IMG/VR virus record: IMGVR_UViG_3300046819_000361
DNA length: 64,000 nucleotides
Strand: one strand, 5' to 3'
Source of the DNA: a virus
Lineage: Duplodnaviria; Caudoviricetes
A model generated the notes under the pieces. It searched no databases. It was not told the DNA's origin and saw only the letters and a program-made list of their open reading frames with translations. Position numbers and translations under genes: made by a program. Each line of letters starts with the position of its first letter. Position 1 is the stretch's first letter. Positions 29,938-49,488 of this stretch are shown in pieces.

Positions 29938-29993
29938 TTTGACACAATTTAAAAAACTGCTATACTATACAGACTTTCAACACGGAGCAAAAA

Positions 29994-30677
29994 ATGAAAC
30001 TATTATCTACTGCTAATACCAAAACTTTAAAAGGCGAGAAGTTTGGTTATAAAACCCACATTTTACATCTTGCACCATTTGATGTATCTGGTTATCAAGT
30101 ATGTCCTAAAGCATCGGCTGGGTGTGCTTTGGCTTGTTTGAACACTGCTGGTCGTGGCAAGTTTGATAATGTACAGAATGCCAGAATTAGAAAAACTAAA
30201 ATGTTTTTCGAGGCACGTTCTGAATTTATGGTACAAATTGTTAAGGATATTCGCAAGGCGATTATAAAATCTGCCAATGATGGTATGATACCATTGATTC
30301 GATTAAACGGCACTAGCGATATTGCCTTTGAAAAAATCCGTGTGGTTGATGCTGGTATTGAATATCGTAACTTGATGGAATTGTTCCCAGATGTAAAATT
30401 TTACGATTACACTGCGATTGTAGGTCGCACCGTACCGGATAACTATCATTTGACATTTTCGCGTAAAGAGTCGAATGATAGCGATGTAGAATTAGCGATT
30501 GCTAATGGTTTAAATGTAGCGGTGGTGTTTGACAAATTGCCTAGTCATTATATGGGATTACCAGTTATATCAGGTGATGATACTGACATTCGCATTAATG
30601 ACCCTGCTAATGTCATTATTGGTTTGAAAGCCAAAGGCAAGGCGAAAAAAGATACTACTGGTTTTGTTATTAAGTAG
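29994..30677 (+). CDS. gp88-like Cys-cluster (radical-SAM-related) phage protein
   Basis: CPKASAGCALACL...RLNGTSDI...FYDYT...YHLTFS. Confidence 0.7.
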   Translation: MKLLSTANTKTLKGEKFGYKTHILHLAPFDVSGYQVCPKASAGCALACLNTAGRGKFDNVQNARIRKTKMFFEARSEFMVQIVKDIRKAIIKSANDGMIPLIRLNGTSDIAFEKIRVVDAGIEYRNLMELFPDVKFYDYTAIVGRTVPDNYHLTFSRKESNDSDVELAIANGLNVAVVFDKLPSHYMGLPVISGDDTDIRINDPANVIIGLKAKGKAKKDTTGFVIK

Positions 30678-30733
30678 TTGACATTGTAAAATTGAGCCGT
30701 TATAATAGCGGCTCAATTATTGAATGGTGATAT

Positions 30734-30928
30734 ATGGAATCGCGCGGTATTAAGGTCAATCAGATTTGTTTACATTGTGAAGGTGTTTTTCCAGTTCGCA
30801 AAGCTGAAGTCAATCGTGGCAATGGCAAATATTGTTCGAGATCTTGTAAGTTATCCCACCAGCATCAATTAGGTTATTATCGAGAACATTTATCCGAGTT
30901 GAATAAAAAGGTTGACATAGTAGTTTAA
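30734..30928 (+). CDS. Small zinc-finger protein
   Basis: CLHC...RGNGKYCSRSC; related to 48057. Confidence 0.6.
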   Translation: MESRGIKVNQICLHCEGVFPVRKAEVNRGNGKYCSRSCKLSHQHQLGYYREHLSELNKKVDIVV

Positions 30929-30962
30929 GTTGGTATAATTATATTTTTTATTGGAGCATAAA

Positions 30963-31160
30963 ATGGATAGTTCAAAACGTGATGAGTTAATTGCAAAAAT
31001 GGCTGAGTCTGCTACTGAAAATGCTGATACTGCGGCATTATCTGATTACTTTTACCAAGGTCAGGTTGAAGTCTTGGATGAGAAGGAAGACAACTGGTTA
31101 ATTGATAAGGCTCTTGAAATGGGTGTTATTGATTCTGGTGATCTGGAAGACTACGAATAA
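30963..31160 (+). CDS. Hypothetical acidic protein
   Basis: own promoter + GGAGCA RBS. Confidence 0.7.
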   Translation: MDSSKRDELIAKMAESATENADTAALSDYFYQGQVEVLDEKEDNWLIDKALEMGVIDSGDLEDYE

Positions 31161-31168
31161 ATTGCAGA

Positions 31169-31198
31169 ATGGTAGCGATACGCTACCATTCTTTTTTG
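31169..31198 (+). terminator. Intrinsic terminator; sister copy at 34003-34033
   Basis: ATGGTAGCgatacGCTACCAT followed by T tract. Confidence 0.75.
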
Positions 31199-31393
31199 TA
31201 TTGTATAAAAACAACAGACAAGTTGGTCTGGCCGCTTCTGGGCCGCCTTCACCATCACGTGTAAGTCATCTATTCCGTAGAATGTGGGTTAATTATGTCA
31301 GGTTAAAAGAAGGCTGTCAACAAAAAAGATTTGTTGACATTAGTGATAGATAGTTTATAATGAATCAACTTTTAACGAGATGGAGCAATAAGC

Positions 31394-31570
31394 ATGAAAG
31401 TATACACAGTGATGTTAAATCGTGGTGATGGTGAAGGTGATCGTTTAGTAGGCATTTTTGATAGTGTTGCTACTGCTGAGGCATTTATTGAAGTACAGGA
31501 TTATTCATGGTGGTATGATTGGTATTCATGGGATGTTAAGACCTTATCAGATATTGGAGAAGCAGAATGA
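31394..31570 (+). CDS. Hypothetical protein (58 aa)
   Basis: GGAGCA RBS, ATGA overlap with next gene. Confidence 0.65.
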   Translation: MKVYTVMLNRGDGEGDRLVGIFDSVATAEAFIEVQDYSWWYDWYSWDVKTLSDIGEAE

Positions 31571-31818
31571 CCACATTAAAAACGCAAGTATCATGTGAAG
31601 TTGAAGACCTTATAAGTGCATTACAGTCGCATACTGGTAAACCTTATGGTGAGATCGAAAATGCGTTATTTGTTGCTGGATTGTATCCAGAGGGATGTCC
31701 AACTGCTATTTCAGTTGTCAAGCGAACAACTGATTATCATGCTTGGATTCGTGACCAAATTCAAGAGATCATGACCTTGAATAAAATTGAATTTTTGTAT
31801 ATCACCGAAGCAATTTAA
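31567..31818 (+). CDS. Hypothetical protein
   Basis: ORF track, GGAG RBS. Confidence 0.7.
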   Translation: MTTLKTQVSCEVEDLISALQSHTGKPYGEIENALFVAGLYPEGCPTAISVVKRTTDYHAWIRDQIQEIMTLNKIEFLYITEAI

Positions 31819-31876
31819 TAGTTGACATCAATCTGGGGTTATGAGAGAATAGCCCCATCTTAACACGGAGCAAGAC

Positions 31877-32134
31877 ATGAGTGAATTTACAGTAAGGTAT
31901 ATTGGTGGTACTTCTGAAAATATCAGTTCAGCAGATACCAAACAGGAATTGATTGATAGTGGTGTTTATGTAAAAGGCATCGCGATATATGATGAGGGAT
32001 ACGATACATGGGAAGCTGATTATGATTTACAATTTGTTGACATAGTGAAAGCGGCTGTGTTATTATACAATCATGAGCTAATTGATTGGCTTCAATTACG
32101 CGATATGTTACAGCAATTTGAAACTGATATTTAA
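31877..32134 (+). CDS. Hypothetical protein
   Basis: own promoter module. Confidence 0.75.
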   Translation: MSEFTVRYIGGTSENISSADTKQELIDSGVYVKGIAIYDEGYDTWEADYDLQFVDIVKAAVLLYNHELIDWLQLRDMLQQFETDI

Positions 32135-32146
32135 TGGAGTAGAAAG

Positions 32147-32569
32147 ATGAGTATAGATTATAAAATAACCGTAATGATTCCATCTGATGTTGATCGTGTT
32201 TTCAGTAGTGATGATGAGTTTAGAGAGGCGATTGCTCGAAGACTAACACACAGTACCGTTAGTGATATTTCATGTGGTAATATCATTGCTGAGTTTGATG
32301 TACTTGCTTATGCTGAAACGGCAGAATTGGAATTAAACGAGTTAATGGAAGCATATCAAAGCAGTTATGACTTGCTGGTAGCGGATATTAAAAAGGTGTT
32401 TTATGACATAGAAGAATTAGCGGCTTGTCATAATGTCAGTCGGATAAAACGAGTTTTATCAGGTATTGAAACAAGTCAAGCGTTTGTTACTTTCCTGATT
32501 GACCAAACCGTAGCCTATGCTAATGAGCAAGCAAAAGCCAAAGGTGAATTTGATTACAATAACGATTGA
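32147..32569 (+). CDS. Hypothetical protein
   Basis: GGAG RBS. Confidence 0.75.
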   Translation: MSIDYKITVMIPSDVDRVFSSDDEFREAIARRLTHSTVSDISCGNIIAEFDVLAYAETAELELNELMEAYQSSYDLLVADIKKVFYDIEELAACHNVSRIKRVLSGIETSQAFVTFLIDQTVAYANEQAKAKGEFDYNND

Positions 32570-32623
32570 CAGTGATTTGGGGTTATGTAATAATAACCCC
32601 ATCTTAACGTGATGGAGCAGAAA

Positions 32624-32830
32624 ATGAGTGAATTAAAAGAATATCAAGTAGTATGGCAAAATCAACCGCATTGCAATTATCCACGCAGAGTTGATTTTGT
32701 AATGGCTGATAGTGAAGCCAATGCACGTAACGTGGTTACCGATCATATTAGACGAACTACTGGTCTGGTGATGACAACCATTCATAGTGTAGCATTATAT
32801 GAAAAACCTACTGTTGGGTATGTAAAGTAG
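32624..32830 (+). CDS. Hypothetical protein
   Basis: own promoter module. Confidence 0.7.
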   Translation: MSELKEYQVVWQNQPHCNYPRRVDFVMADSEANARNVVTDHIRRTTGLVMTTIHSVALYEKPTVGYVK

Positions 32831-32890
32831 TTGACACTAGTTTGGGGTTATGTAATAATAGCCCCATCTTAACGTGATGGAGCAATCATA

Positions 32891-33277
32891 ATGATTATTA
32901 AAACCACCGAATTGAGTGGGCTGGCGCTGGACTATGCTGTTGCCATGTGTGAATATCCACATCTGGTATACGGAGACACTATTGGATTGCACCATGCCTC
33001 GCACCAGCTTACTATCCCTGAATTTAAAGTGCCAGATTGTTTTTACAATCCATCAGTTAATTGGTCAGTGGGTGGTGTTATCGTTGAACGGGAACGTATC
33101 ACATTAGATGCACGGGAATCAGATTGGCAAGCTAGAATCTGGGATGATAGTATTGTTGATTTTATCGAAGTTGGCAAACGTGGTCCATACTGTAATACTG
33201 CATTAATAGCGGCTATGCGCTGTTATGTTACAAGTAAATTGGGTAATGAAGTTGAAATTCCTGATGAATTAGTTTGA
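32891..33277 (+). CDS. NinX/DUF2591-family phage protein
   Basis: KTTELSGLALDYAVA...YNPSVNW..GG.IVERERI...LIAAMRCYV.SKLG.EVEIP. Confidence 0.75.
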   Translation: MIIKTTELSGLALDYAVAMCEYPHLVYGDTIGLHHASHQLTIPEFKVPDCFYNPSVNWSVGGVIVERERITLDARESDWQARIWDDSIVDFIEVGKRGPYCNTALIAAMRCYVTSKLGNEVEIPDELV

Positions 33278-33333
33278 CACCAGTTTGGGGTTATGTAATA
33301 ATAGTCCCATCTTAACACAGCGGAGCAAATGAA

Positions 33334-33561
33334 ATGACTGTAAGATTAGTAATTAGTATAGAATGCGGATCGGTTCAAGCGGTATATACCAACAACAAAG
33401 CTATCAAGGTTGATGTTGCAATCGTTGATTATGATTTTGAAGATGGTGATCTGGATGAAATTAAAACTGATGATTGTGGCAATGAGTACATTGGTAGACT
33501 TGAAACTACCTGCGAAGCGCAACCCTATGTAAATGAAGTATTTGAAAAACTATTAGCATAG
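33334..33561 (+). CDS. Hypothetical protein
   Basis: own promoter module. Confidence 0.75.
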   Translation: MTVRLVISIECGSVQAVYTNNKAIKVDVAIVDYDFEDGDLDEIKTDDCGNEYIGRLETTCEAQPYVNEVFEKLLA

Positions 33562-33619
33562 TTGACATTTAGTAAGAACCTAGTATAATAACCCAATATT
33601 AACACAGCGGAGCAAGGCG

Positions 33620-35936: not shown

Positions 35937-36009
35937 GCTGATAGTTCCTTATAAACTGTTAGAGTAGTTGGGACTGTCAATCCGCGAACTACTTTTTATT
36001 TAGCTTTTT

Positions 36010-36231
36010 ATGAATGACAAACAAAAAACATTTCAATCTGATGCTGAGTTAATGCAGGCATTACTAGATGGTCAAGAATTACAATCAGTATATAACAACG
36101 GGTTTATTAAGTTGGATACTAATGGTAATTTGATATTTATTAAAAAACATTGGCAATATATAAATCGTCGAGATTGGCTAATAAATAAGCCGGAGGATGA
36201 TGAAGGTGGAGCGACCGAGAATAAAGATTGA
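36010..36231 (+). CDS. Hypothetical protein
   Basis: ORF track. Confidence 0.55.
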   Translation: MNDKQKTFQSDAELMQALLDGQELQSVYNNGFIKLDTNGNLIFIKKHWQYINRRDWLINKPEDDEGGATENKD

Positions 36232-36535
36232 CAAAGGTATCTGGATCTGCGAAGATATTGAAGGTAATACAGGAAAAGGCAGAACACCACGAGAAGCGTG
36301 GTATGAATATAAAATAAAAATTGTTGACAAGATAATGGAGCTGGTGTATAATAATGAAACATTTAGTTGAAGGCATGGCGGTAGTATTGTTATTGGGCAT
36401 ATGTGTAGTATTATATGCAGAGCGCCAGCGAAGACTACCAATGCCAGATAAGCATACGGTGGAAGTTGAGCAGGTTGAAGATAAGCAACCGCCTATGTAC
36501 ATAATGCAACCAGTAAGATCAAAATAGGAATAACC

Positions 36536-36745
36536 ATGACCAACGTACCAGAAGATTCAATGTTAAGACGACATTATTTAACCGAGTTAAGAAACAAACA
36601 AACTGCCAATTTCGATGCCTTTATTAGTGCGACTAAAACGGTATTAGAGCCGGAGAGTGAAGTACATTATTATCCATTTTGGAGTAATGCAGTATTATTA
36701 CCTTTGATTGGTTTTGTATTCATGATGTGTGTAGTATTCCTATGA
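36536..36745 (+). CDS. Hypothetical protein with C-terminal TM helix
   Basis: PEDSMLRRHY motif; hydrophobic tail. Confidence 0.65.
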   Translation: MTNVPEDSMLRRHYLTELRNKQTANFDAFISATKTVLEPESEVHYYPFWSNAVLLPLIGFVFMMCVVFL

Positions 36746-36958
36746 AACAATGGCATAATGGATTATTAGAAGATATATTAATGGTTATTTCAGCATTGAT
36801 GCCATTAGTAATGACTACAGGATTAGTTTGGTTGCTTTATCTTGTATTACAATGAAAGAGTTCTTTAACAATTTGGGAATATCGATCATACTTACATTAG
36901 TAACGGTATTAGTAGTATCATTGCTTTATGCTCTTATATTTAAGACTTGAGGATTCTA

Positions 36959-37312
36959 ATGGATGATCAATTAGAAAAAAGAAAACAAGAAATCATGCAA
37001 GCGTATGAAGCAAGTAATGATAAAGCGGCATTTGAAGCGGCAATCCATGAAATTGGTGATTTGTCAAGGAAAATGACTGAAATAGTCAAAACTGCTCGAA
37101 AAAGAATGATTGACAAAGGATTATTGGAAGCCACTGATGAAGATGCAGGAATTAACATGGAAACACAACTTAAAGAAAAAATCGGTGATACTGTCAATGG
37201 TGAATCTATAACAAGCATTCAGCAAGATGAATATAACAACTGGGTTGACATCCATAATTCAGCTATAAGATTGAATGAATTACTAGACAAATTGAAAGTA
37301 ACACCAAAATGA
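36959..37312 (+). CDS. Hypothetical protein
   Basis: GAGGA RBS. Confidence 0.7.
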   Translation: MDDQLEKRKQEIMQAYEASNDKAAFEAAIHEIGDLSRKMTEIVKTARKRMIDKGLLEATDEDAGINMETQLKEKIGDTVNGESITSIQQDEYNNWVDIHNSAIRLNELLDKLKVTPK

Positions 37313-37587
37313 AAATTTCTGAAATATTAGACGCTGAAAATAGCATCGATGATATGCTTGATTCGATAAAGTTTTCCTCATTGCCGACTATCGATAAATT
37401 TATCGATAATATATTAGGATTTACTAATAATTTTAATGTACCAGTCGATGTATTTAATGATGAATTAATTCAAGAAATGTTAGATGAGGCAACTCATCTA
37501 AAATCGGTATTAGAAAAAGAATTTGATGATGGTTCTAGGTGGATTGTAAAGATAAATGCTGTAATTGCATATCTATCTGGTAATTAA
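37309..37587 (+). CDS. Hypothetical protein (MKISEILDAE N-terminus)
   Basis: ATGA overlap. Confidence 0.7.
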   Translation: MKISEILDAENSIDDMLDSIKFSSLPTIDKFIDNILGFTNNFNVPVDVFNDELIQEMLDEATHLKSVLEKEFDDGSRWIVKINAVIAYLSGN

Positions 37588-37619
37588 ACTTGATAAGTAA
37601 GAAAATTGTAGTATAATGT

Positions 37620-37715
37620 AATTCATCATGATAAGCCTCTTAACAATGCTCAAACCGATCATGATTAAAAAACCCTATCATGCCTCTTGACAATGCACAA
37701 ACTGATAGGGTTAAA
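37620..37715 (+). ncRNA. Candidate twin-hairpin small RNA
   Basis: promoter TTGATA..TATAAT; two stems each looping GCCTCTT(A/G)ACAATGC(T/A)CAAAC. Confidence 0.45.
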
Positions 37716-37778
37716 ATAAAGATTGACAATGTAGTAAAATGTAGTATAATAAATAACATATAAATTAGAGTGTTTTGT

Positions 37779-37852
37779 GGATCTATAATTTAAACGGAAA
37801 AAATACTCGACTCATAATCGATGAGATTTCGGATCATACCCGAATGGATCCA
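37779..37852 (+). tRNA. Atypical tRNA with CAT anticodon (Met/Ile2-like), no encoded CCA
   Basis: GGATCTA/TGGATCC acceptor, ATTT/AAAT D arm, TCGA-CTCATAA-TCGA anticodon arm, TTCGG-ATCATAC-CCGAA T arm; promoter TTGACA-16-TATAAT at 37723-37750. Confidence 0.6.
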
Positions 37853-37865
37853 CAAAACACTTTAA

Positions 37866-38023
37866 AATCAACAACTTACGAAAAATTGCCCTTCCTACGT
37901 GAATAGAATGGGCAATGATACTGCAAAAACAATTTCATGCAACACTTTTTTAGTTAAGTTATTGATTTATAAGGAAAAAGTGATTTAAGTGAATTCATTT
38001 TCCTTACATGTAAGTCATTGATT
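37866..38023. promoter_or_regulatory. Three IHF-consensus sites (WATCAANNNNTTR)
   Basis: 37866-37878 (+), 37955-37967 (-), 38011-38023 (-). Confidence 0.55.
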
Positions 38024-38036
38024 TTTATAGAGTTTT

Positions 38037-38801
38037 TTATCTAGTAATTCTTGATTGAATGAGTTTATCATACAATGGATGATTTAACGAATCTTCTGTT
38101 ATTGTATCACTTTTGATGATATTATCAATAGCCCATAATGGTCTTAAATTAGTATAATGATTTAACATTATTATTTCATGTTCCGATTGAGCAAACGCAA
38201 TTGGTATAATGTGGTCAATATGCCATTCACCATTAGTAGACCATGTCATGCCTTCTAAAAACTGCTTTTCAATATGTGTTTTAAACTCATCATAACTACA
38301 ACCTAATATCTCATAAGTTATAGATGTCTTTTTATATCCATTTCTAGTTATTGAACTCTTAATAAGAACTCTTATTCTTTTTCTTATTTGATATAACGTA
38401 TCAGTCAACATTCTTTCTTTATGACGAAGTGAGCGCTGTTTATTATACATATCTGTATTAGCTAATCTATATTGTTTTATCTTGTCTTTATTGGCAATAT
38501 AGTGTTCTTTTTTGTATTCTGCAATTTTGTCTTTATTGGCAATATAGTGTTCTTTTTTGTATTCTGCAATTTTGTTTTTATTAGATTGGTAATAAAGTTT
38601 ACTGTTGTCTTTATTAGTTTTATAATACAATTTACATGTTTCTTTTCTTTTTGAATGATTGGCTAAAACGTATTCTTTTGAACATGATTTGCATTGGTAT
38701 TTGTAACCATCTTTAGTATTTTTATCTTTATAAAAATTTTCTATTGACTTTGTAGTGTTGCATTTGTTACAATGCTTCTGATGTATTGGATAAATACCCA
38801 T
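38037..38801 (-). CDS. HNH homing endonuclease with 15-aa tandem repeat
   Basis: CNKC/CKSC, KIAEYKKEHYIANKD x2, WHIDHIIP...NHYTNLRPLWA. Confidence 0.85.
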   Translation of the reverse strand: MGIYPIHQKHCNKCNTTKSIENFYKDKNTKDGYKYQCKSCSKEYVLANHSKRKETCKLYYKTNKDNSKLYYQSNKNKIAEYKKEHYIANKDKIAEYKKEHYIANKDKIKQYRLANTDMYNKQRSLRHKERMLTDTLYQIRKRIRVLIKSSITRNGYKKTSITYEILGCSYDEFKTHIEKQFLEGMTWSTNGEWHIDHIIPIAFAQSEHEIIMLNHYTNLRPLWAIDNIIKSDTITEDSLNHPLYDKLIQSRITR

Positions 38802-38964
38802 GTGATGACCTCCTAGTCGTTACTGCCAATGGGTATTCCACTACCGCGATTGGCTTTTTTTGTGCTTTGTATTTATCTTTATGCTTGACAATAGTATGAA
38901 TTATTGATACTATACAACTCTTAAAAAATATTATTTTAATAGGCAACTGTAAAGGGAACTTTGA

Positions 38965-39756
38965 ATGAAAGATATAGAAACTGATGATCAAATAATTGAA
39001 CGACTACGAGTGAGATTTGAATGTCTCGAAGATATGACACGAGCAGTAAAAGGTGGTAAGGTCAGATCAATGATAGTATCTGGTAGTCCAGGTGTTGGCA
39101 AATCATTTGGTATTGAAAAAGTATTAGGGTATCATGATTTATTTGCAACTATTGCGAACGATCAATCATTGAAAAAATATGAAATCGTAAAAGGTGCAAT
39201 GTCACCATTAGGATTATATGTTAAATTACATCAATTCAAAAATGACAAAAATGTTCTAGTAATTGATGATTGTGATAATATCTATAGCGATGAACAATCA
39301 TTAAATTTATTAAAAACGTGTTTGGATACTGGAAAGAAACGAGTAGTAAGCTGGAATTATGATAGCTATAAATTGAAAGACGAAGGTGTACCAAATTCGT
39401 TTGAATTTAATGGCGGTATCATATTCATTACTAATGTTGATTTTGATCACGTTAAAAGTAGAAAGATAAAAAGCCATTTAAAAGCATTGGAAAGCAGATG
39501 TCATTTTATCAACTTAACTTGTCATTCCAATAGAGAAAAGTTATTGAGAATTAGACAAATTGTTAATGATGGGATGTTAGATGGTCATGGCATAGATAAT
39601 GAAAAAAAGCTTGACGTAGTTGATTTTATATGCGATAATCATACTGCATTACGAGAATTATCATTAAGAACTGTTATTAAAGCTGCTGATTTGGCTAGTT
39701 CTTTTCCAGATCGATGGAAGGACGTAGCTAAAATAACATTAATGAAAAGTCGTTAA
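38965..39756 (+). CDS. Phage AAA+-type P-loop ATPase
   Basis: GSPGVGKS Walker A, LVIDDCD Walker B, FITN, ALESR. Confidence 0.85.
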   Translation: MKDIETDDQIIERLRVRFECLEDMTRAVKGGKVRSMIVSGSPGVGKSFGIEKVLGYHDLFATIANDQSLKKYEIVKGAMSPLGLYVKLHQFKNDKNVLVIDDCDNIYSDEQSLNLLKTCLDTGKKRVVSWNYDSYKLKDEGVPNSFEFNGGIIFITNVDFDHVKSRKIKSHLKALESRCHFINLTCHSNREKLLRIRQIVNDGMLDGHGIDNEKKLDVVDFICDNHTALRELSLRTVIKAADLASSFPDRWKDVAKITLMKSR

Positions 39757-39759
39757 AGA

Positions 39760-39956
39760 TTCGCCAAATATTACCCATGCTCCGGTAATATTTGGCAATA
39801 CCCCTGCTCCTGACGCAACTGCTCCTGCGATCAGTTGAGCAACCCTAGGCATTCAATATTATATATCATTTGCTCCGGTAATTAATATTGAATCGCTACT
39901 ACCCCTCAACCCCTATTAGTATATCATTTGCTCCGGTATGCTAATAGGGGTTTTTC
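39760..39956 (+). ncRNA. Multi-hairpin RNA with anti-RBS (TGCTCC) loops ending in an intrinsic terminator
   Basis: 5 TGCTCC copies; stems GCCAAATATTACC/GGTAATATTTGGC, ATTCAATATTA/TAATATTGAAT, AACCCCTATTAG/CTAATAGGGGTT + T run. Confidence 0.65.
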
Positions 39957-40016
39957 TACTTGACAACCCAGATTGCTAGCTGTATCATGTACACATCATA
40001 ACGCGGAGTATTAAGT

Positions 40017-40247
40017 ATGTTAACATTTAATCTAAATGGCAATATCTTGGAAGTCATCGAAACTACTATGACATTCCATCAAGACTTGAAATCATATTGG
40101 TATTATGATCTAGTGAGCTGGCGCAAATCAAGCACTGGTAGACAAGGTGCGATGATCGACCGCGATATTGAGCCTTGGCAGATTGAATGGATTAAAAAAC
40201 ATTATTATTCAAAAGTCGGGTTGACATCAGATTTGGGTGCTGTATAA
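40017..40247 (+). CDS. Hypothetical protein
   Basis: own promoter module. Confidence 0.7.
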   Translation: MLTFNLNGNILEVIETTMTFHQDLKSYWYYDLVSWRKSSTGRQGAMIDRDIEPWQIEWIKKHYYSKVGLTSDLGAV

Positions 40248-40274
40248 TACAACCATCTTAAGAAGGAGCGAAGT

Positions 40275-40451
40275 ATGAACACTTACACAGTTATCTTATC
40301 TTATCACAATGGCAAACGTTCGTTTGTTGATAAGATTTTTAAAAACATCACGGCTGATAACCTTATTCAAGCTGGTGAATTGGCATTAGCCAATTGGAAT
40401 AAACCGGATGCAGTTATCAATATGTGCTGGCTCAACTGGAGTAAAGCATGA
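40275..40451 (+). CDS. Hypothetical protein (58 aa)
   Basis: own promoter, AAGGAG RBS. Confidence 0.65.
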   Translation: MNTYTVILSYHNGKRSFVDKIFKNITADNLIQAGELALANWNKPDAVINMCWLNWSKA

Positions 40452-40651
40452 CATACCAACAACCAGCATTAGGTACATTAAATGCACGGTTAACCCCAGC
40501 AGATAAACCTACTGTTATCGTTAAAATGTTTAAGTTCGATAGCATTAGACAGGAAGCCTACTGGGTTACACAATACGTTAAACAGTTCAAGACCATTGAA
40601 CAAGCCAATAATTATATAAATCGAGTGATGGAGCAAAAAAATGATTTATAA
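40448..40651 (+). CDS. Hypothetical protein
   Basis: ATGA-coupled. Confidence 0.65.
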   Translation: MTYQQPALGTLNARLTPADKPTVIVKMFKFDSIRQEAYWVTQYVKQFKTIEQANNYINRVMEQKNDL

Positions 40652-40828
40652 AGACTTATTAAACCAACTTAACCAAATGTCGCAAGAAGACTTAAATAAA
40701 CCTGTGACTGTTCTTTTAGTTGAGGCTGGAGAGTTTTTGGGTGCATGGGGTGATCTTGTATATTCAGATGAATCTGACACATTAGAAGTCGGCACACCCT
40801 ATTTAATGATTGATTAAAGGAATAAAAC

Positions 40829-41074
40829 ATGAAACAGGAATATAGAGATTTATTAGCAAGAATTCAACGTCCAGCAATCAAAGCTGAATTAATCGCATAT
40901 GCTAGACAAGTAATCGAGAATGATGGTAACCTAACAGACGATTGGTTTTCATTCAATGATTGGATTGACATTAACGTATTTGATAACATCAATGCTACTG
41001 CTTACCCAGTAATATTAGGTGAACCATCAACAGAAAAAGGTATAAAGTTAATTGTTGACAATATAGACCAATAA
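40829..41074 (+). CDS. Hypothetical protein
   Basis: AAGGA RBS. Confidence 0.7.
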   Translation: MKQEYRDLLARIQRPAIKAELIAYARQVIENDGNLTDDWFSFNDWIDINVFDNINATAYPVILGEPSTEKGIKLIVDNIDQ

Positions 41075-41108
41075 CAGTATTATACAGTTTTTATCTGGAG
41101 CATAACCT

Positions 41109-41417
41109 ATGAAATACGAAACAATTAAAACCAAAATGAAAATTCATATTGATAATCAATTTGAACAACACGGCTTTGATCTTTCAACCCATGCTATTAG
41201 ATTATTTCTTGATAGAAAACCATTAGATTACTACAAAAAGAAAAAATACGCTAAAGAAGCGTGTTTTGAAATCATTGACAATTGGGATGTTCGCGCGGTA
41301 CCATCACTGTTCACAATGTTTCCAACCGTTTACCCATCAATGGTAGGAAAACCATTAGTCATCACCTATGATGAAAATGGTGAATGGGTAGTAGAAAAAG
41401 CAAAACAAACAGCTTGA
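41109..41417 (+). CDS. Hypothetical protein
   Basis: own promoter, GGAGCA RBS. Confidence 0.7.
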   Translation: MKYETIKTKMKIHIDNQFEQHGFDLSTHAIRLFLDRKPLDYYKKKKYAKEACFEIIDNWDVRAVPSLFTMFPTVYPSMVGKPLVITYDENGEWVVEKAKQTA

Positions 41418-41473
41418 CATTGATTTGGGGTTATGTAATAATAGCCCCATCTTAACTCGATGGAGCAAAAATC

Positions 41474-41833
41474 ATGAAAGTATTCGTATATTTCAACCTA
41501 CACAAAAAATTGTTTAGTATCAAAGCAATGGAAGGTGAAAACAAAGGTAAGGTGATCGGTCACTCACCAGTGGTATTATTGGATGATGTAACCTTTAAAG
41601 TATCCGAAGCAGGTAGACAGCGTGTTATCAGAGAACGCAAAAAGAATGTTCATGCAGGTGTAATGGGACACCTTAACGCACAAGGCATAAGATTAGTAAT
41701 TGCGACCCGTGATCTAACAACCAAAGTAACTTATAACCCATACAAATATCAATCATTCGTTGAGGTTGAAACATCTGAGCCGGTATTGACTGCTAACAAT
41801 GCATTGTTAGTGAACAAACGAATTTATATTTGA
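41474..41833 (+). CDS. Conserved-type phage protein (VYFNLHK...KNVHAGV...YNPY)
   Basis: motif pattern, own promoter module. Confidence 0.75.
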   Translation: MKVFVYFNLHKKLFSIKAMEGENKGKVIGHSPVVLLDDVTFKVSEAGRQRVIRERKKNVHAGVMGHLNAQGIRLVIATRDLTTKVTYNPYKYQSFVEVETSEPVLTANNALLVNKRIYI

Positions 41834-41893
41834 TTGACATCATGCTGGGGTTATGTAATAATAACCCCATCTTAACACAGCGGAGCAAACGCA

Positions 41894-42103
41894 ATGACAC
41901 CAGAACAAACAAAACGTTTATTACAAGGGGCATCATTCCTATCGATTGAAGGTGAATTTTATCGAATAGACCTTTGTGATGAAACCGAATTTTATTACAC
42001 TGATGAAGACAGTGGTGAACAATATTGTGATACCTATGATAAGATTGATTTGTATAACCCAGAAGTTGAGATATACAAACTTGAAAAAATAAACATTAAG
42101 TAA
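41894..42103 (+). CDS. Hypothetical protein
   Basis: own promoter module. Confidence 0.7.
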   Translation: MTPEQTKRLLQGASFLSIEGEFYRIDLCDETEFYYTDEDSGEQYCDTYDKIDLYNPEVEIYKLEKINIK

Positions 42104-42162
42104 TTGACACCAGTTTGGGGTTATGTAATAATAACCCCATCTTAACATGATGGAGCAAAGCA

Positions 42163-42711
42163 ATGAACAAATACCATGTCAACCTGCAAGAAAAATTAGA
42201 TGATGAGTTTTTAGATAAAATGTGGTTTGAATGTGATGCTGATAATGCAGAACACGCCAAAGAACAAGCCACCAATGCTTATCCTGATTGCAAAATCAAT
42301 GCAGTTCAAACCAGTATCACATGGACAGAATTCGAGGAAAGATTCAAACCAATCAAGAACCATTTAGATGATAATGCCTCATTCGATGGTTATATGTTTG
42401 AAACATTTGATTCTGAGCTTGATGCAGTCAAACAGGCATATAGTGTCAATCGTGATACTGTTTGGACGGTTATGTGTGATTCAGGTAATGTCGATGTTTC
42501 TAGTGGGTTTTACTTTTGTAATCGTCTAGGTTACATTATCACAGAGATACCAGCAGATTGCACCATTGATGTTATCAATGACGATTATAACGAAATTACA
42601 GAGTTCTACGATTACGAATGTCCATCATGTAATAGTTACATCAATGGTGACCCAAAAGTTGGTGATTCATGCTCGTGTGGCTTTGTATTCACAATGGAAG
42701 ATTACGATTAG
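42163..42711 (+). CDS. Hypothetical protein with C-terminal zinc ribbon
   Basis: CPSC...CSCG; own promoter module. Confidence 0.75.
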   Translation: MNKYHVNLQEKLDDEFLDKMWFECDADNAEHAKEQATNAYPDCKINAVQTSITWTEFEERFKPIKNHLDDNASFDGYMFETFDSELDAVKQAYSVNRDTVWTVMCDSGNVDVSSGFYFCNRLGYIITEIPADCTIDVINDDYNEITEFYDYECPSCNSYINGDPKVGDSCSCGFVFTMEDYD

Positions 42712-43426
42712 TAGTTGACAGCATTTTGGGGTTATGTAATAATAACCCCATCTTAACACAGCGGAGAAAATACAATGTCAGAAAAAATGATTGAATATCT
42801 AATTGAATTAGCTAAAAACAACGATGATTCAGAAACACTTGATGACTATGCACAAGGTCAAGTTGATTTAGCTAAACATATCTTGTATGATATGGATATT
42901 GAAGTCGAATAAGCACTTGACAGCATTCTGGGGTTATGTAATAATAGCCCCATCTTAACACACCGGAGCGAACACCATGACACCTATTACAATTGAACAA
43001 AAACGTGATGCAGTTATCAACGACACATTCGATACTTGTTTAAATGATAGTGGTTATTTATTATCAGTTATTCAGGATTTGTACCGTGATAAATCCGATG
43101 AAGAAATCGAACGAGCTTATAACGATGCTTTCGATTTTTAATTGACATAAACAATGGGCTATGAAATAATAACCCCATCTTAACACAACGGAGCAAACCA
43201 TGACATCTTACAAAGTAACTTATACCATTGACGTTGATGCTGAAAGTGCATTAGATGCAGCATTGGAAGTTGAAGAATACTTAAAAAACCCATCCAGCAG
43301 ACCTTACTTAACAGTATCATCATCAACTGAAACTGTTGATATTGATTTAGAAGATCTAGTCTAGTTGACAAATCATTAATGAGCCATTATAATGATGGCT
43401 CTTTTCAAACATTCGGAGCAAACGAT

Positions 43427-43972
43427 ATGCCAAATTGGTGTCAAAACACAGTAACATTCACCCACAACGATGCTACACAATTAAACAGATTGGTGGAAGC
43501 TGGTAATTCAGGAAAGCTATTTAATGAGTTCGTACCAGTGCCTAAAGCATTGTTCAAGATCATCAATACCAGACTTGGCGATAAACGCAGATTTAGACGG
43601 TCATTACGCATTACAACCCGTAATGAAAAGAAGTATAGCTATGCTAGTGCTTATTACTTTTGCAAAGCAAATTGGGGTACAAAGTGGGATGCTGATTGCT
43701 TCACGTTATATGATAGCGGTGTAGGTCATGTCAGAGTCGGATTTAATACCGCTAATACACCACCAATTGAATTCTATAATCAAATGGTTGAGCTTGGCTT
43801 TGGTGTCGATGCCTTTTATTATGAAGGTGGCAATTGCTATTGTGGTGAGTATTGTGATGGCTCATACACTGATTACGAATGGGATGACCTAGAATCAGCT
43901 AAAGCTAACATTCCCGACTATATCGATGAAGAATTCGCCATTACCGAGAACATGGAAGAATACGAAGAATAG
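43427..43972 (+). CDS. DUF1281/Api92-like ferredoxin-fold protein
   Basis: MPNWCQN...NWGTKWD...FNTANTPP...YYEGG..YCG. Confidence 0.75.
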   Translation: MPNWCQNTVTFTHNDATQLNRLVEAGNSGKLFNEFVPVPKALFKIINTRLGDKRRFRRSLRITTRNEKKYSYASAYYFCKANWGTKWDADCFTLYDSGVGHVRVGFNTANTPPIEFYNQMVELGFGVDAFYYEGGNCYCGEYCDGSYTDYEWDDLESAKANIPDYIDEEFAITENMEEYEE

Positions 43973-44034
43973 TTGACAATTACATCAAGAGCCATTATAA
44001 TGATGGCTCTTTTAACGCATCTGGAGCAAATCAA

Positions 44035-44235
44035 ATGGCTAGAATTGAAATCGAATACCAGTATAACGAATCAGCACCTAATGAGCAAGTCGCGGAAGAA
44101 CGCAATGACCATGCGATTGAACGTATTGCAAACGCTTTAGAAATGGGGCTTGTTCAAGGCGAATTGAATTATTATGATTCTGATTCTGACATTGATTATC
44201 ATGGTTGGTATTCAATAGTTCACTTCGTCGATTAG
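44035..44235 (+). CDS. Hypothetical protein
   Basis: own promoter module. Confidence 0.7.
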   Translation: MARIEIEYQYNESAPNEQVAEERNDHAIERIANALEMGLVQGELNYYDSDSDIDYHGWYSIVHFVD

Positions 44236-44293
44236 ACTTGATAGGCACATAATGCTAGCTGTATTGTGTGCCATTACTCATGCAGGTAAACAC

Positions 44294-44476
44294 ATGGCAA
44301 CTATACTAGCAGTTATTCTAATTTTAGCAATCCTTTGGCTAGTGCTGGAAATATCAATCATTCTAATGATTGGCTTATTCATTGTGGCAGCGTTTGGTAG
44401 TCATACCGAAGCTGGCAATCTAATTGGTTTTATTGGCTTGATAATCGCTGGTTATGCAATGGTAGGCGAAGCATGA
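44294..44476 (+). CDS. Small membrane protein
   Basis: 2-3 hydrophobic helices. Confidence 0.6.
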   Translation: MATILAVILILAILWLVLEISIILMIGLFIVAAFGSHTEAGNLIGFIGLIIAGYAMVGEA

Positions 44477-44715
44477 AATATGATGATTTATACACCAACG
44501 CAAAGAATACCAAACCAGTTTATAACATCAAAAAACATATTGTAGTTGATTCTAAAGTGGTTTATAATACAGGCAAACCACCATACGAAACCACGGTTAT
44601 ATTTTATGTAATGGCGGCTTTTATTTTACTATGTGCATTGCATAACGCAATATCAATAGTATTAACAATTTACAATGGTATTTTAGATTTATTTGGAGCA
44701 GATGATGACTATTGA
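44473..44715 (+). CDS. Hypothetical membrane protein
   Basis: ATGA-coupled, hydrophobic segment. Confidence 0.6.
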   Translation: MKYDDLYTNAKNTKPVYNIKKHIVVDSKVVYNTGKPPYETTVIFYVMAAFILLCALHNAISIVLTIYNGILDLFGADDDY

Positions 44716-44893
44716 TGATGTAATACAAGCAAAAACAAATCTAGGTAAGGTTATCAATTCCTTGGAAAACTTCAACCATATAGCCGAGATTGATGTACAA
44801 TTAGGAATCCCGACCAAAGTTAAACTGTTTGAGTTATATCGCCTATGTCAAGAATTCAGTGTTGAATTCGAGCGAATCGTACCAGATGAATAA
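44702..44893 (+). CDS. Hypothetical protein
   Basis: GGAGCA RBS. Confidence 0.6.
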   Translation: MMTIDDVIQAKTNLGKVINSLENFNHIAEIDVQLGIPTKVKLFELYRLCQEFSVEFERIVPDE

Positions 44894-44953
44894 AAGTTGA
44901 CAAGCAGTAATGCTAGCTGTATCATAGGCACAAATCAACATTGGAGCATATCA

Positions 44954-45103
44954 ATGCCAAATGGAAAAACAGCACGATATATTGTAAAAGTATGGGATGG
45001 TTATACTAATAGTTCCTTTGAAAGAATCGCTACTTATGATTATTTGGCTAATGTGTGCCGTGCTTATCCACCAAGTTATATTTGGAGCATAGAACCAGCT
45101 TGA
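44954..45103 (+). CDS. Hypothetical protein
   Basis: own promoter module; start corrected. Confidence 0.6.
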   Translation: MPNGKTARYIVKVWDGYTNSSFERIATYDYLANVCRAYPPSYIWSIEPA

Positions 45104-45155
45104 CAAGCAATAATGCTAGCTGTATCATAGGCACACATCAACACCGGAGCATCAC

Positions 45156-45392
45156 ATGTCAATAACAGAATTAAGAAAAGAGTTGAAAGCCATTGGTTTT
45201 AAAGTTAAACTGACCAGCATGAGTTGGGGCAGAGCCGCAACCTATACTGATATGGACGGCAACCAACGACCAATGATATTTTTTTGTGATGAAAAGATAA
45301 AAGCATGGCGGCCATTAACTCATTACATAAACGACAACCATGAAAGATTACGATCATTGGCTAATAGTGAAAAAATCACTGGCTTAATTTAG
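45156..45392 (+). CDS. Hypothetical protein
   Basis: own promoter module. Confidence 0.7.
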   Translation: MSITELRKELKAIGFKVKLTSMSWGRAATYTDMDGNQRPMIFFCDEKIKAWRPLTHYINDNHERLRSLANSEKITGLI

Positions 45393-45401
45393 GAGCGAAT
45401 T

Positions 45402-45725
45402 ATGTTATATGCATTTAGAATAGTTCAAGAAGACAACACCATTTCACATCATGGCATGGTTACAGCGAATTCCAATTATGATTTGTTTTGGATGATTGAT
45501 CAGTTTGTTGATCCTTATGCAGTAGAAGTTAAGAAGATCACCGGATTAACTGGTTTTTGTTCTCGCACACAGGAATTGATTGACGATGATGGTGATATGA
45601 CAACCCCTATCCCACACGAAGAAGGCGCAGATCTTGAATTCGCGGAGGAATTCACTAACACAATTAGTGAGTCAGATGGATGGTACAGACCAAAATGGAC
45701 TAAAAAACAAATAATTGGTTATTGA
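45402..45725 (+). CDS. Hypothetical protein
   Basis: AGGAG RBS. Confidence 0.7.
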   Translation: MLYAFRIVQEDNTISHHGMVTANSNYDLFWMIDQFVDPYAVEVKKITGLTGFCSRTQELIDDDGDMTTPIPHEEGADLEFAEEFTNTISESDGWYRPKWTKKQIIGY

Positions 45726-46136
45726 CACTGCCCTGCCCTACTGCGATAATAAACCACCTTAACAAACCGGAGCAAAAACAATGTATGACCGTTATTTGAT
45801 TTATGTGGCACAAGCCGAGGCATTAGGATGGTATGTTTTACCTTTCGATGAGTGGCTAAACAGTTAAAAAAGATTTGACAGGTTTAACATGAGTCGCTAT
45901 TATAGTGGCTCATTCAAACAACACCGGAGCAAATCAAATGAAAAAATTTAAACTGGATGGTTTAACAGGATACATTGACCAAAACAATTTTATTCGCTGG
46001 TCTACTATCAGTTGCCATTTTGACTCATTAGCTGATTGTCCGCTAAAAAAAGCAGCAGCTAAAGCAAAATAAAGTTTGACAATAGTTTAGGATGGTGCGA
46101 GAATAGCACCATCTTAACAAATTGATGGAGCAAATC

Positions 46137-46397
46137 ATGGGAATGTATAAAGATAAAACTGGTGTTGTTGGCGAGTTTCAAGAGAAAGAATTCAAACAGC
46201 ATTTTGAATTCAAACAGACTGAGCCGGATTCTTGGGGGGATTTATTTGGTTTCCCATACCGTGTAGCAGTCGGCCCACTAGGGGAAACCAGATATGCAAA
46301 AATTTCAAAAACTGTTGCTTATGTGGTTGTCGATCAAGATGATAATGGTGATCCAGTTTTAGAAAAATGGCAAATCAAACTACTTTGGAAAAAATAG
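46137..46397 (+). CDS. Hypothetical protein
   Basis: own promoter module. Confidence 0.7.
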   Translation: MGMYKDKTGVVGEFQEKEFKQHFEFKQTEPDSWGDLFGFPYRVAVGPLGETRYAKISKTVAYVVVDQDDNGDPVLEKWQIKLLWKK

Positions 46398-46459
46398 TTT
46401 GACAATCGCTTAAAGAGCCGTTAATATAGCGGCTCATTCAAACATTACCGGAGCAAGTC

Positions 46460-46885
46460 ATGGATAGAATAATCAACCACTTTCAAGCTGATTTCAAACA
46501 AGTTTTCCCTAATAGTCCAACTGGTGTGACTAATTCAGTTTTTGGACTATCAACCAGATTTATTAGCTTTACACTAGCACAAAAAAAGGATTATCCAAAC
46601 GGCATTATTAACAATGATCCGTTGCATACATCATTTAGTTTAACAGTAAATGCTGATGGTTCATATACTGTTGAACATACACAAGGTGCTTTATATGTCA
46701 ACCCACGAGAACGATTCATTGCCATGAGTTCTATCAAGACCAGATTAACTAAAAAAACTGGCAATGAAGATCAGGTAATAAAGCACTTGACAAAATGGAT
46801 TAACAAAGTAAAATCTATCGTCGTAGAAAATAAGAATGACATTTACGGTGGTTTGGAAAAATACCAAAAATACATCGTCGAATAA
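46460..46885 (+). CDS. Hypothetical protein
   Basis: own promoter module. Confidence 0.75.
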   Translation: MDRIINHFQADFKQVFPNSPTGVTNSVFGLSTRFISFTLAQKKDYPNGIINNDPLHTSFSLTVNADGSYTVEHTQGALYVNPRERFIAMSSIKTRLTKKTGNEDQVIKHLTKWINKVKSIVVENKNDIYGGLEKYQKYIVE

Positions 46886-46951
46886 AACTTGACAATAGTT
46901 TAAAGAGCCGTTAATATAGCGGCTCAATCAAACAATAATGGAGCAATAAAA

Positions 46952-47263
46952 ATGAACACAGTTTATACCAATGGTTATTATGGTCATAAAATGGAAACAA
47001 AAATTGACCTAGATAATAGCAGATTAGTTACCATTTCAACTATGAAAAGAAGTAGCGGGTTATTAGTAACCTTTGCCAGTGTCGGTACTAGAAACGGTGA
47101 TTTTATTAGTAGCATCATGTTTCAAGATTTTACTAAAAATCTTGCGTCACAAAAAATTCGTGTAACTGAAAAAGCAGTTAGACTACAACACCAACAAGCC
47201 TTGGACGGTATCGAATCGCTATTGGCTGAGATTGAAGACTTTTACAGTAAAGAAACAGCATAA
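46952..47263 (+). CDS. Hypothetical protein
   Basis: own promoter module. Confidence 0.75.
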   Translation: MNTVYTNGYYGHKMETKIDLDNSRLVTISTMKRSSGLLVTFASVGTRNGDFISSIMFQDFTKNLASQKIRVTEKAVRLQHQQALDGIESLLAEIEDFYSKETA

Positions 47264-47330
47264 AAAGCTTGACAGGTGCAATTATAGTGAATTATAATTG
47301 CACCATCTTAACAACACCGGAGCAAAAACC

Positions 47331-47651
47331 ATGTCGGTATCAGAGCAAAACATTCAAGATTATTTAACCCATATCGGCAACAAATACGCTGAGTTCCATG
47401 ATCGCATGGGCTTCACTTCCGAAGCAAACCGAGTTCAAAAATTCCGTGATTATTTGCGTACCACCGATGGCAAATCATACATCAAAGTAATTAAGGAAGG
47501 ATCGGTTCACAGTTTCATCGTAAAAGCCGATAATGGCAAATTCAAAGCCGGTGACGTGCTAAAAGCCGCCAGCTTTAACGCACCAGCTAAAAACTTCAAG
47601 CGTGGTAATGTGGTCACCGGTGATCTGGATAACATCGATTGGTCAATGTAA
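47331..47651 (+). CDS. Conserved-type T4-like phage protein (GDVLKAASFNAPAK..RGN)
   Basis: motif pattern, own promoter module. Confidence 0.75.
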   Translation: MSVSEQNIQDYLTHIGNKYAEFHDRMGFTSEANRVQKFRDYLRTTDGKSYIKVIKEGSVHSFIVKADNGKFKAGDVLKAASFNAPAKNFKRGNVVTGDLDNIDWSM

Positions 47652-47719
47652 AAAAAGACTTGACAGGTGCATGATGCTAGCTGTATCATGCACCTTTCTT
47701 ACATGACGGAGCAAATAAT

Positions 47720-47992
47720 ATGTGGTGGTGTACTTCATCAGGTGGCATTGAGTTAAACATTACTTTAAACAATGCAAAAAAATGCTTTCACTCAGGTGAT
47801 TGTGAATTGGATGTAATCGAGTTATCCAAAAAAGCATCAATCAAAAAACAAACCAAATTGATTGATAAAGAGCTATTAATTAAAGAGTTATCCGAGTATG
47901 GTGCATGGAATAACGAAGAGTTACAAGACCACGAACAAAATATAATTAGATTGTTATGGCTTGCCACTGCTGATATAGCAGAAAATAATTAA
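47720..47992 (+). CDS. Hypothetical protein
   Basis: own promoter module. Confidence 0.7.
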   Translation: MWWCTSSGGIELNITLNNAKKCFHSGDCELDVIELSKKASIKKQTKLIDKELLIKELSEYGAWNNEELQDHEQNIIRLLWLATADIAENN

Positions 47993-48056
47993 TCACTTGA
48001 CAGGTGCATGATGCTAGCTGTATCATGTGCCTTTCTTAACATGATGGAGCAAAACA

Positions 48057-48371
48057 ATGGTTGATTTAATCGCAAAAACCGGACACGTTTGGGTAAAATG
48101 CAAAAAATGCGATTGCGATTTTCAAGCTAGAATAGCTGATCGCAATCGTGGCTGGGGGAAGTTTTGTTCAAAATCATGTAAAGCTAAAGAGCAGGAAAAC
48201 CGCACTGGCCAATATCGTGCATACGCATCAAGACAGGTTCAAAAAATCAACGGCAGTACAATCAGCCGTGAATTAGCTAAAAAATCTAAAGACCTAGTTG
48301 AAGTTTATGATGATGGCAGTTTTACTTATATCAATCATTTTGGTGGCTGGGATGACCATAAATTTGATTGA
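48057..48371 (+). CDS. Zinc-finger protein
   Basis: CKKC...RGWGKFCSKSCKA. Confidence 0.7.
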   Translation: MVDLIAKTGHVWVKCKKCDCDFQARIADRNRGWGKFCSKSCKAKEQENRTGQYRAYASRQVQKINGSTISRELAKKSKDLVEVYDDGSFTYINHFGGWDDHKFD

Positions 48372-48428
48372 CAGATTAAATAATAGCCGCTAATATAGCC
48401 GCTCTTTTAACAACACCGGAGTAAAAAA

Positions 48429-48734
48429 ATGGCATTAACACCATTAACCGAACGCCAAAAAACCTTGATCGTGAACAACGTGGTGAAGGCTGTTAAGGAT
48501 ATTACAAAGCTTAACAAAACAGGATATAACTTCCTATATCTTGCCAGTGGTTTTATCGCCTATCATAACCTGTATGGATTTATCGAGCATTTTAAAGATT
48601 ATGACTTAAAGCGCGATATTTTGGCCAACCATCGCCAAAACCAATGGCTTAATTTTCGCCTAGGCGATAATGATTATGACTATTACAAGTCAAAAGCCGA
48701 TGTTTATAATCGTATTGTGGAAGCGATAAAATAA
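48429..48734 (+). CDS. Hypothetical protein
   Basis: own promoter module. Confidence 0.75.
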   Translation: MALTPLTERQKTLIVNNVVKAVKDITKLNKTGYNFLYLASGFIAYHNLYGFIEHFKDYDLKRDILANHRQNQWLNFRLGDNDYDYYKSKADVYNRIVEAIK

Positions 48735-49243
48735 TTTGACACGAGCGGCTAATTTGGATTATATTAGCCGCTCTTTTAACAACACCGGAGCAAAAAAATG
48801 GATGCCCACGTTAAAGCCTTTTATGATGATATAGAGGCAAATTATGACGAGATTCAAGCAAAAGCTATGCGGGAAGCCGAAGACCGCTGGCTTGATGCTG
48901 GATGCCCTAGTAACGGGTTCGATGAGTTTGGCGATTAAATAATTTGACACGAGCGGCTAATTTGGATTATATTAGCCGCTCATTCATTCACACATTACCA
49001 TAAAGAGGTTTTATGTCTATAACACGGGGCGACTTGTTAGATAAAGGCGGGATTGAAGTTTCTAACTCATGGGATATTATCCTAGACGGTGTACGATGGA
49101 TTGAAAAACCATCCGATAATGGCAATGGTTGGTATGCAGGTTCGTCGGATAATACCGACAACCTAATTTACATCAAGGCTTGATTTTAAAATAAGAGCGG
49201 TTTATAATAGCCGCTCTTTTAACAACAACACCGGAGCAAAATC

Positions 49244-49432
49244 ATGATTGAAATAAAAAAAGGCGTTTCAAAAACGACCTTCCCTATCGATAAAATCGCG
49301 GCGGTAGCGCTACAATTAGCTGGTGGCGGCTATACAGTCGCACAAACAGCTAAAGCTATGGAAATCCAAGCTGATTTGAAAGCTGGAAAAACTGTAAAAG
49401 CCAAAGGCTTTACAGTTAAAATTATCGATTGA
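49244..49432 (+). CDS. Hypothetical protein
   Basis: own promoter module. Confidence 0.7.
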   Translation: MIEIKKGVSKTTFPIDKIAAVALQLAGGGYTVAQTAKAMEIQADLKAGKTVKAKGFTVKIID

Positions 49433-49488
49433 TTTTAAAATAAGAGCGGTTTATAATAGCCGCTCTTTTAATAAAACCGGAGCAAACC

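Follow-up and report, generated by a model that had tools for sequence, protein, structure and literature searches.

The 64,000-nucleotide stretch of DNA analysed here (the window) belongs to an uncultured freshwater phage and is detected in many lake metagenomes. Directly behind an ATPase gene lie about 200 nt with several copies of TGCTCC, a motif complementary to the GGAGCA that precedes many start codons of the same phage. Is this segment a regulatory RNA, which strand is at work, and does it act on its own messenger or on other genes? An earlier note, written from the sequence alone, had read it as a single multivalent plus-strand RNA that silences the early genes in trans by covering their ribosome binding sites (RBSs), or alternatively as a minus-strand sponge for a CsrA protein assumed to be encoded by the phage.

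The protein encoded upstream of the element (Table 1) is 43% identical to a protein of jumbo phage PA5oct and ~40% identical to proteins of T4-like phages. From this similarity it is taken to be NrdC.10-like, an inference; NrdC.10 is an AAA ATPase of unknown function (PMC1524935). PA5oct, the best cultured match, has no such element behind the gene nor in the nearby annotated ncRNA004. In some strains the promoter of the ATPase gene has lost its -35 box and retained the extended -10 box. The terminator-like hairpin that precedes this promoter might limit read-through from upstream tagged genes, but its role is ambiguous because it is also part of the leader of a divergent HNH-like gene. Two related HNH-like genes are found on the minus strand (35196-35936 and 38037-38801); strains with the same ATPase lack them or have a GIY-YIG gene instead. 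The closest ATPase (76% identity) is encoded at locus L341, on a phage-like contig from a Methylococcaceae genome bin, a weak hint that the phage may have a methanotroph host.

Table 1. Window coordinates of the element, of the gene that carries it, of the phage CsrA gene and of the predicted target leaders.
Feature	Coordinates	Strand	Remarks
Left target group	29984..33614	+	8 GGAGCA leaders: 29984, 30953, 31382, 31867, 32614, 32879, 33322, 33609
Leader with 12-nt exact complement of the hairpin 3/4 loop region	33321..33332	+	predicted net pairing -13.4 kcal/mol
Phage CsrA homologue, 62 aa	34115..34303	+	Pfam PF02599, E 1.5e-26; own promoter, untagged leader
Weak terminator-like hairpin with T7	38817..38861 (start approximate)	+	-10.3 kcal/mol; just upstream of the ATPase promoter
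Sigma-70-type promoter	38885..38913	+	TTGACA-17-TACTAT, TG extension; likely start of the ATPase-plus-element transcript
AAA-type ATPase, NrdC.10-like, 263 aa	38965..39756	+	weak AAA Pfam matches; carries the element in its 3' UTR
Whole element	39757..39956	+	3' UTR of the ATPase mRNA, ~200 nt; four hairpins and terminal U-tract
Hairpin 1	39763..39796	+	13-bp stem; loop 39776-39783 CAUGCUCC
Hairpin 2	39805..39841	+	loop 39818-39825 ACUGCUCC
Hairpin 3	39848..39897	+	loop 39868-39876 AUUUGCUCC, weak apical stem
Hairpin 4	39908..39955	+	loop 39926-39934 AUUUGCUCC; also intrinsic terminator, T-tract 39951-39955
Right target group	40630..49484	+	22 GGAGCA leaders
Near-tags, in addition to the right group		+	GGAGCG 40275, 42977; GGAGTA 40017, 40448, 48429 (gene starts)

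The element begins right after the ATPase stop codon. Its five TGCTCC copies (39778, 39805, 39820, 39871 and 39929; motif scan) are exactly where the earlier note had placed them. GGAGCA is matched by chance 14.7 times per 64 kb, both strands counted (shuffles), that is ~0.05 times per 200 nt, so that five TGCTCC in 200 nt are far above expectation. The plus strand between positions 39740 and 39980 is predicted to fold into four hairpins (-78.7 kcal/mol, z = -7.8). The claim that the motif lies mostly in loops also held: four of the five copies have an unpaired probability of 0.92-1.0 and are predicted open loops, whereas that at 39805 forms part of the basal stem of hairpin 2. The note's proposal of a plus-strand terminator at the end of the element was likewise right. 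A terminator scan gives hairpin 4, followed by five T, as the strongest plus-strand terminator of the region, and it is the only one of the four hairpins with a U-tail. A stock scan, limited to loops of 8 nt, did not report it, probably on account of its 9-nt loop.

Sequence variation supports this fold. Among strains with an identical ATPase protein, hairpin 1 has a compensatory pair (A39768G/T39791C) and a change, C39774T, that preserves pairing (U-G) on the plus strand only. Hairpin 4 features two U-G pairs on the plus strand. The consensus fold of five homologues from the GGAGCA clade, to which the window belongs, has 15 of its 62 predicted pairs changed on both sides, in an alignment where hairpin 2 is misaligned in two distant homologues. 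At two loci (L467 and L470) a G-to-C change equivalent to position 39821 turns loop 2 into CUCCUCC, a canonical anti-Shine-Dalgarno sequence.

No family for the element was found in Rfam, at gathering score or at E up to 10, and blastn against 50,697 phage records gave chance matches only. The open-access literature searched holds no account of this RNA, although the large catalogues of candidate RNAs were not checked row by row. At the level of sequence and structure the segment is a real, conserved RNA element without description in the literature searched; its expression is inferred. One unstranded freshwater metatranscriptome contig runs from a diverged ATPase allele through into 39753-39884, without information on strand or level, and may be DNA. 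This contig (contig 7 of RNA run X17) was excluded as proof of transcription since it apparently includes promoter DNA. Both it and L235:175-1170 join a 62%-identical ATPase allele to a near-identical copy of the element, which shows that gene and RNA are exchanged separately. No conserved promoter of the element's own was found; a promoter-like site at 39611-39639 was rejected for that role, its position not being conserved in relatives.

The complementary sites have a defined place in the genome. GGAGCA occurs in 30 plus-strand copies spanning 29984-49484 and set 4-6 nt before an ATG (spacing window 3-11 nt), in agreement with the roughly 30 leaders that the earlier note had counted. The complements that it had listed are also exact: besides the 12-nt match of Table 1, six leaders near 45767, 45924, 47316, 48784, 49230 and 49476 have 11-nt matches. 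These 11-12 nt matches extend into the closing stem of the loops and only hairpin 3, which forms the longest predicted target duplexes (11-15 bp), opens cheaply (~3 kcal/mol); most predicted contacts are therefore of 7-9 bp. The median accessibility-corrected net pairing is -9.2 kcal/mol for the 30 tagged leaders, compared to -4.6 kcal/mol for other plus-strand genes, -2.4 kcal/mol for the left gene array and 0 kcal/mol for replication genes. Predicted pairing is then selective for the tagged genes, as a check of the RNA against the phage leaders proposed in the earlier note would have it, although the contrast is partly circular because the tag itself defined the target set.

The tagged genes are small promoter-RBS-gene cassettes with a -35 box 30-62 nt upstream in 28 of 31 tags (background 12%), and their assignment as early genes is inferred from these sigma-70-type promoters. 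Outside the tagged island GGAGC precedes only 2 of 114 minus-strand ORFs, and in long relatives the tags are concentrated beside the ATPase gene. Many early-promoter -10 boxes between 31830 and 49470 lie within short palindromes with varying arms, e.g. GGGGTTAT...ATAGCCCC, which might be operators or processing hairpins. The minus strand between 7637 and 27366 bears ~85-90 tandem ORFs of 60-100 aa whose similar 3' ends provide the RBS of the next gene (consensus TGAGGTGGTC-ATG). This array has no GGAGCA tags and is not among the predicted targets.

If the loops pair with the tags, the two should change together during evolution. Each of the 21 first relatives (53-65% identity) has GCTCC just behind the ATPase gene; in most cases the motif occupies hairpin loops whose stems are unrelated, and a U-tract comes after it. 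A 15-nt loop pattern retrieved 120 viral stretches, the majority behind the same ATPase, directly or after three small genes. At seven loci of one clade (L024, L027, L029, L046, L066, L096 and L103) the loop-hairpin is located 600-930 nt after the ATPase gene, behind a conserved gene for a 90-aa basic protein with a promoter of its own and an RBS without the tag. For co-variation, 232 ATPase loci were thinned to 113 at <93% identity. The dominant RBS tag agrees with the loop class in all 45 classifiable lineages (37 GGAGCG, 4 GGAGCA and 4 GAGGGC), and the base after GGAGC agrees in 40 of 43 when mixed loci and L341 are counted. Each tag class is a single clade on the ATPase tree, so that the 45 concordant rows amount to about two independent joint switches. 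With this qualification, the co-variation between loop and RBS that the earlier note had proposed to look for in relatives is present. Deeper lineages have further pairs between ATPase leader and loop, e.g. GAGTGAG with CTCACT, and leader-loop complements of at least 7 nt are found in 46% of own pairs against 13% of crossed pairs. There are exceptions. The leaders of L341 are mostly GGAGCA, yet two of its three loops read CGCTCC; L207 and L138 have mixed tags; L145 has GGAGCA tags, including in the ATPase leader, without a hairpin element directly behind the ATPase gene.

These data bear on a first rival explanation, in which the element is merely a series of terminators or DNA palindromes and its loop motif a functionless leftover of inverted leader fragments. 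Hairpin 4 is indeed a terminator and the early island is made of repeated cassettes. Against this, the stems vary freely with compensation and share no sequence with the leaders, yet the loop sequences persist and change in step with the tag from clade to clade, and only the last hairpin has a U-tail. This explanation is all but excluded. It is very likely that the function of the loops rests on loop-tag pairing of some kind, though pairing in the cell is inferred.

The strand at work was assessed by two signals. The loop motif leads into a U-tail in 76 of the 120 stretches and comes after an A-run in one. Single mismatches in Watson-Crick stems, read on the plus strand, are G-T in 27 cases and A-C in 3 (p = 8e-6, lineages treated as independent), with 6 against 0 within the GGAGCA clade alone. 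Raw G-U counts in energy-minimum folds point the other way (298 on the minus strand, 209 on the plus strand), probably because the minus strand is G/U-rich; the composition-neutral mismatch count was given more weight. U-tails and wobble direction together indicate that the working RNA is most likely the plus strand, with antisense loops, although there are no stranded RNA data.

Reading the opposite strand leads to the second rival explanation, in which a minus-strand transcript with GGAGCA loops would sponge the phage CsrA in the manner of CsrB/RsmZ. The CsrA gene assumed by the earlier note does exist, 5.5 kb away (Table 1); it was recovered by an HMM after being missed by a regex search, and ORF 28997 was rejected as a CsrA candidate. 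The minus strand also folds well (z = -4.9), has weak promoter-like sites at 40023 and 39966, is favoured by the raw G-U counts and reads CAGGA in two of its copies. CsrB repeats read CAGGA. Against the sponge stand the plus-strand signals, the probable inflation of the raw G-U count by composition, the absence of a minus-strand terminator at the end of the element (terminator scan) and the lack of any match to Rfam CsrB, CsrC or Rsm families. The distribution of CsrA is a further difficulty. The gene is found within ~5 kb of the ATPase gene in the window and at L020, L143 and L016, all of the GGAGCA clade, and at no other locus. It is absent from eight other contigs (two estimated complete), and no CsrA is present in relatives that retain the element and whose genomes are 72-100% complete; within the GGAGCA clade it was not seen in the available stretches of L012 (short) and L341. 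Searches based on CsrA and on gapped patterns added no ATPase-bearing loci to the clade. Since the element persists in phages that lack a CsrA gene and in those with the GAGGGC tag, which has no GGA, sponging of a phage CsrA is unlikely to be its general role, and the sponge is very unlikely as an explanation of the element. CsrA could nonetheless be a second regulator of the same GGA-containing sites in the GGAGCA clade.

If the plus-strand RNA pairs with RBSs, its own messenger could be the target. The third rival explanation, modelled on the icaR mRNA (PMC3868564), holds that the element acts in cis, with 3' loops folding back onto the RBS of the same mRNA and so limiting ATPase translation, and the other matches a by-product of a shared RBS style. 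In its favour, the core tag is present in the ATPase leader of 47 of 51 GGAGCG and 6 of 7 GAGGGC lineages (53 of 58 together). Deep lineages have leader-loop matches without a visible tagged island, and action in cis may be the ancestral role. The window's clade is the one where the self-target was lost, and it separates the two models: none of its six members has the core tag in the ATPase leader, and 2-5 copies of the loop motif are retained. A partial site, GAGCAA, is left in the leader of some members. The ATPase leader of the window has no GGAGC tag and is predicted to pair with the element at only -1.9 kcal/mol; the nearest upstream tag is 5.3 kb away, beyond a divergent gene and a terminator-like hairpin. 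Loss of the leader tag with retention of the loops is better explained by action in trans than by a 5'-3' loop within one mRNA. A role in cis alone probably fails to explain the element of the window and is unlikely as an alternative, with the reservation that the tag loss is one evolutionary event.

The trans reading can be laid out as follows. Transcription from the ATPase promoter would end at hairpin 4 and produce an mRNA whose 3' UTR displays four single-stranded GCUCC loops on stable stems of variable sequence. Their trans partner would be the GGAGCA tag that ~30-35 promoter-proximal early genes carry in leaders which are short and free of structure. In this tag a Shine-Dalgarno core (GGAG) is followed by a private extension (CAA), so that pairing would hide the ribosome site of tagged mRNAs and spare genes with other sites. 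The structured 3' end, whole or as a nuclease-resistant fragment after cleavage, would accumulate, and early translation would be damped or shut off as a class while untagged genes, the ATPase and CsrA genes included, would be spared. The ATPase gene and the targets share one promoter type, sigma-70, so any delay would have to arise from accumulation, which is an assumption. The structure, strand signals, complementarity, co-variation and loss of the tag from the ATPase gene are established, and the sequence tests thus support the main inference of the earlier note. Expression, processing, pairing, repression, timing and the existence of a stable separate RNA are inferred; the small size of most contacts (7-9 bp) and the single event behind the loss of the cis site count against the model. 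On balance, repression of the early genes in trans by a 3'-UTR anti-RBS RNA is the favoured reading and more likely than not.

A fourth explanation remains possible, in which the loops do pair with the tags but for a purpose other than the timed shut-off of the phage's own early genes. The RNA might act against a superinfecting relative that bears the same tag by silencing its early genes, keep early expression low during a dormant or carrier state, or alter mRNA stability, possibly with or against CsrA at the same GGA. This explanation predicts identical co-variation and strand signals; the c4 RNA of phages P1 and P7 gives heteroimmunity through loop-RBS pairing (PMC12197685), and CsrA lies near the ATPase gene in four contigs of the GGAGCA clade and at no other locus. 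Against it, an RNA transcribed from a promoter of early type, within the island that also holds its targets, could hardly avoid self-targeting. Pairing across a Shine-Dalgarno site usually blocks initiation, the link to CsrA concerns one clade and may reflect host type, and tags shared by wide clades are a coarse code for immunity.

Several known RNAs resemble the element in part. The cuckoo or RSs0680 (CcsR) RNAs of Alphaproteobacteria (PMC4615179; Rfam RF02344) consist, like the element, of 2-4 neighbouring hairpins whose stems vary and whose loops repeat a single motif of anti-Shine-Dalgarno type. The loops of the element read (A/U)UGCUCC and not the cuckoo CCUCCUCCC, one strain variant having CUCCUCC in loop 2 only. 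Also unlike cuckoo, the element has no Rfam match, is encoded by a phage, and its loop complements a private gene tag of that phage and changes with the tag between clades. RNAIII of Staphylococcus aureus seeds trans pairing with target RBSs by several C-rich (UCCC) loops (PMC4615179). The element likewise has unpaired C-rich loops complementary to the RBSs of its predicted targets, and RNAIII is a regulatory RNA on a coding transcript, as is proposed for the element. There is no sequence relation between them, and RNAIII is a host virulence regulator that forms long duplexes, whereas the element has ~30 predicted targets with one short tag. The icaR mRNA of S. aureus also features an anti-Shine-Dalgarno motif in its 3' UTR, but pairs with its own 5' UTR, while the ATPase leader of the window is untagged and the motif is present in four loops. 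The c4 antisense RNA is a trans-acting phage RNA whose loop sequences block an RBS with a specificity that differs between related phages (PMC12197685); it targets one operon for immunity, whereas the element matches a whole gene class and gives no Rfam c4 match. Read on its minus strand, the element has GGA repeats in hairpin loops as CsrB and RsmZ do, and a CsrA gene is nearby; the plus-strand evidence and the relatives without CsrA or with a GGA-free tag set it apart. By these criteria the element stands outside the cuckoo, icaR-type and CsrB families, as a variant of anti-Shine-Dalgarno loop RNAs for which no description was found.

The job proposed for the element, inactivation of early mRNAs as a class, is carried out in T4 by the RegB endoribonuclease, which acts via GGAG Shine-Dalgarno sites, and by the RegA repressor, which acts on ~30 initiation regions (PMC3014915, PMC1702504). 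The T4 regulators are proteins, while the specificity of the element would rest on RNA base pairing. A RegB search in five long relatives gave no match, but the control was likewise silent. T4 is the main source of knowledge on how large lytic phages end early expression, with RegB and RegA as the proteins involved. The route suggested here would run through RNA, and its code can be read from sequence: dozens of mRNAs carry a tag of 6-8 nt, a loop matches it, and tag and loop co-switch between clades. A bolder reading is that widespread uncultured large phages label their early mRNAs with a private RBS address, and that one multivalent RNA borne by the ATPase mRNA switches the class off as an RNA counterpart of RegB/RegA; in the window's clade the site on its own mRNA would have been lost and the RNA would act purely in trans, alongside the phage CsrA at the same sites. 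The evidence falls slightly short of making this reading the probable one. If the RNA route holds, it would add a class-wide regulatory RNA to lytic phage biology, allow the early genes of uncultured phages to be called by a sequence rule and offer orthogonal tag-loop pairs for translational control.

The window has other features of note. An Rfam abiF motif above gathering score lies next to a tRNA (37674-37710 and 37779-37852); a similar hairpin is found just upstream, near 37626-37665, and strong promoters flank them. A GP88 family gene is located at 29994-30677 and a gene for an ART-PolyVal ADP-ribosyltransferase at 53538-54188. The ORF at 1849-4872 codes for a 1007-aa protein with a sigma-70 region 1.1 domain at its end, and a helicase with an intein-like LAGLIDADG insert is encoded at 61644-63956.
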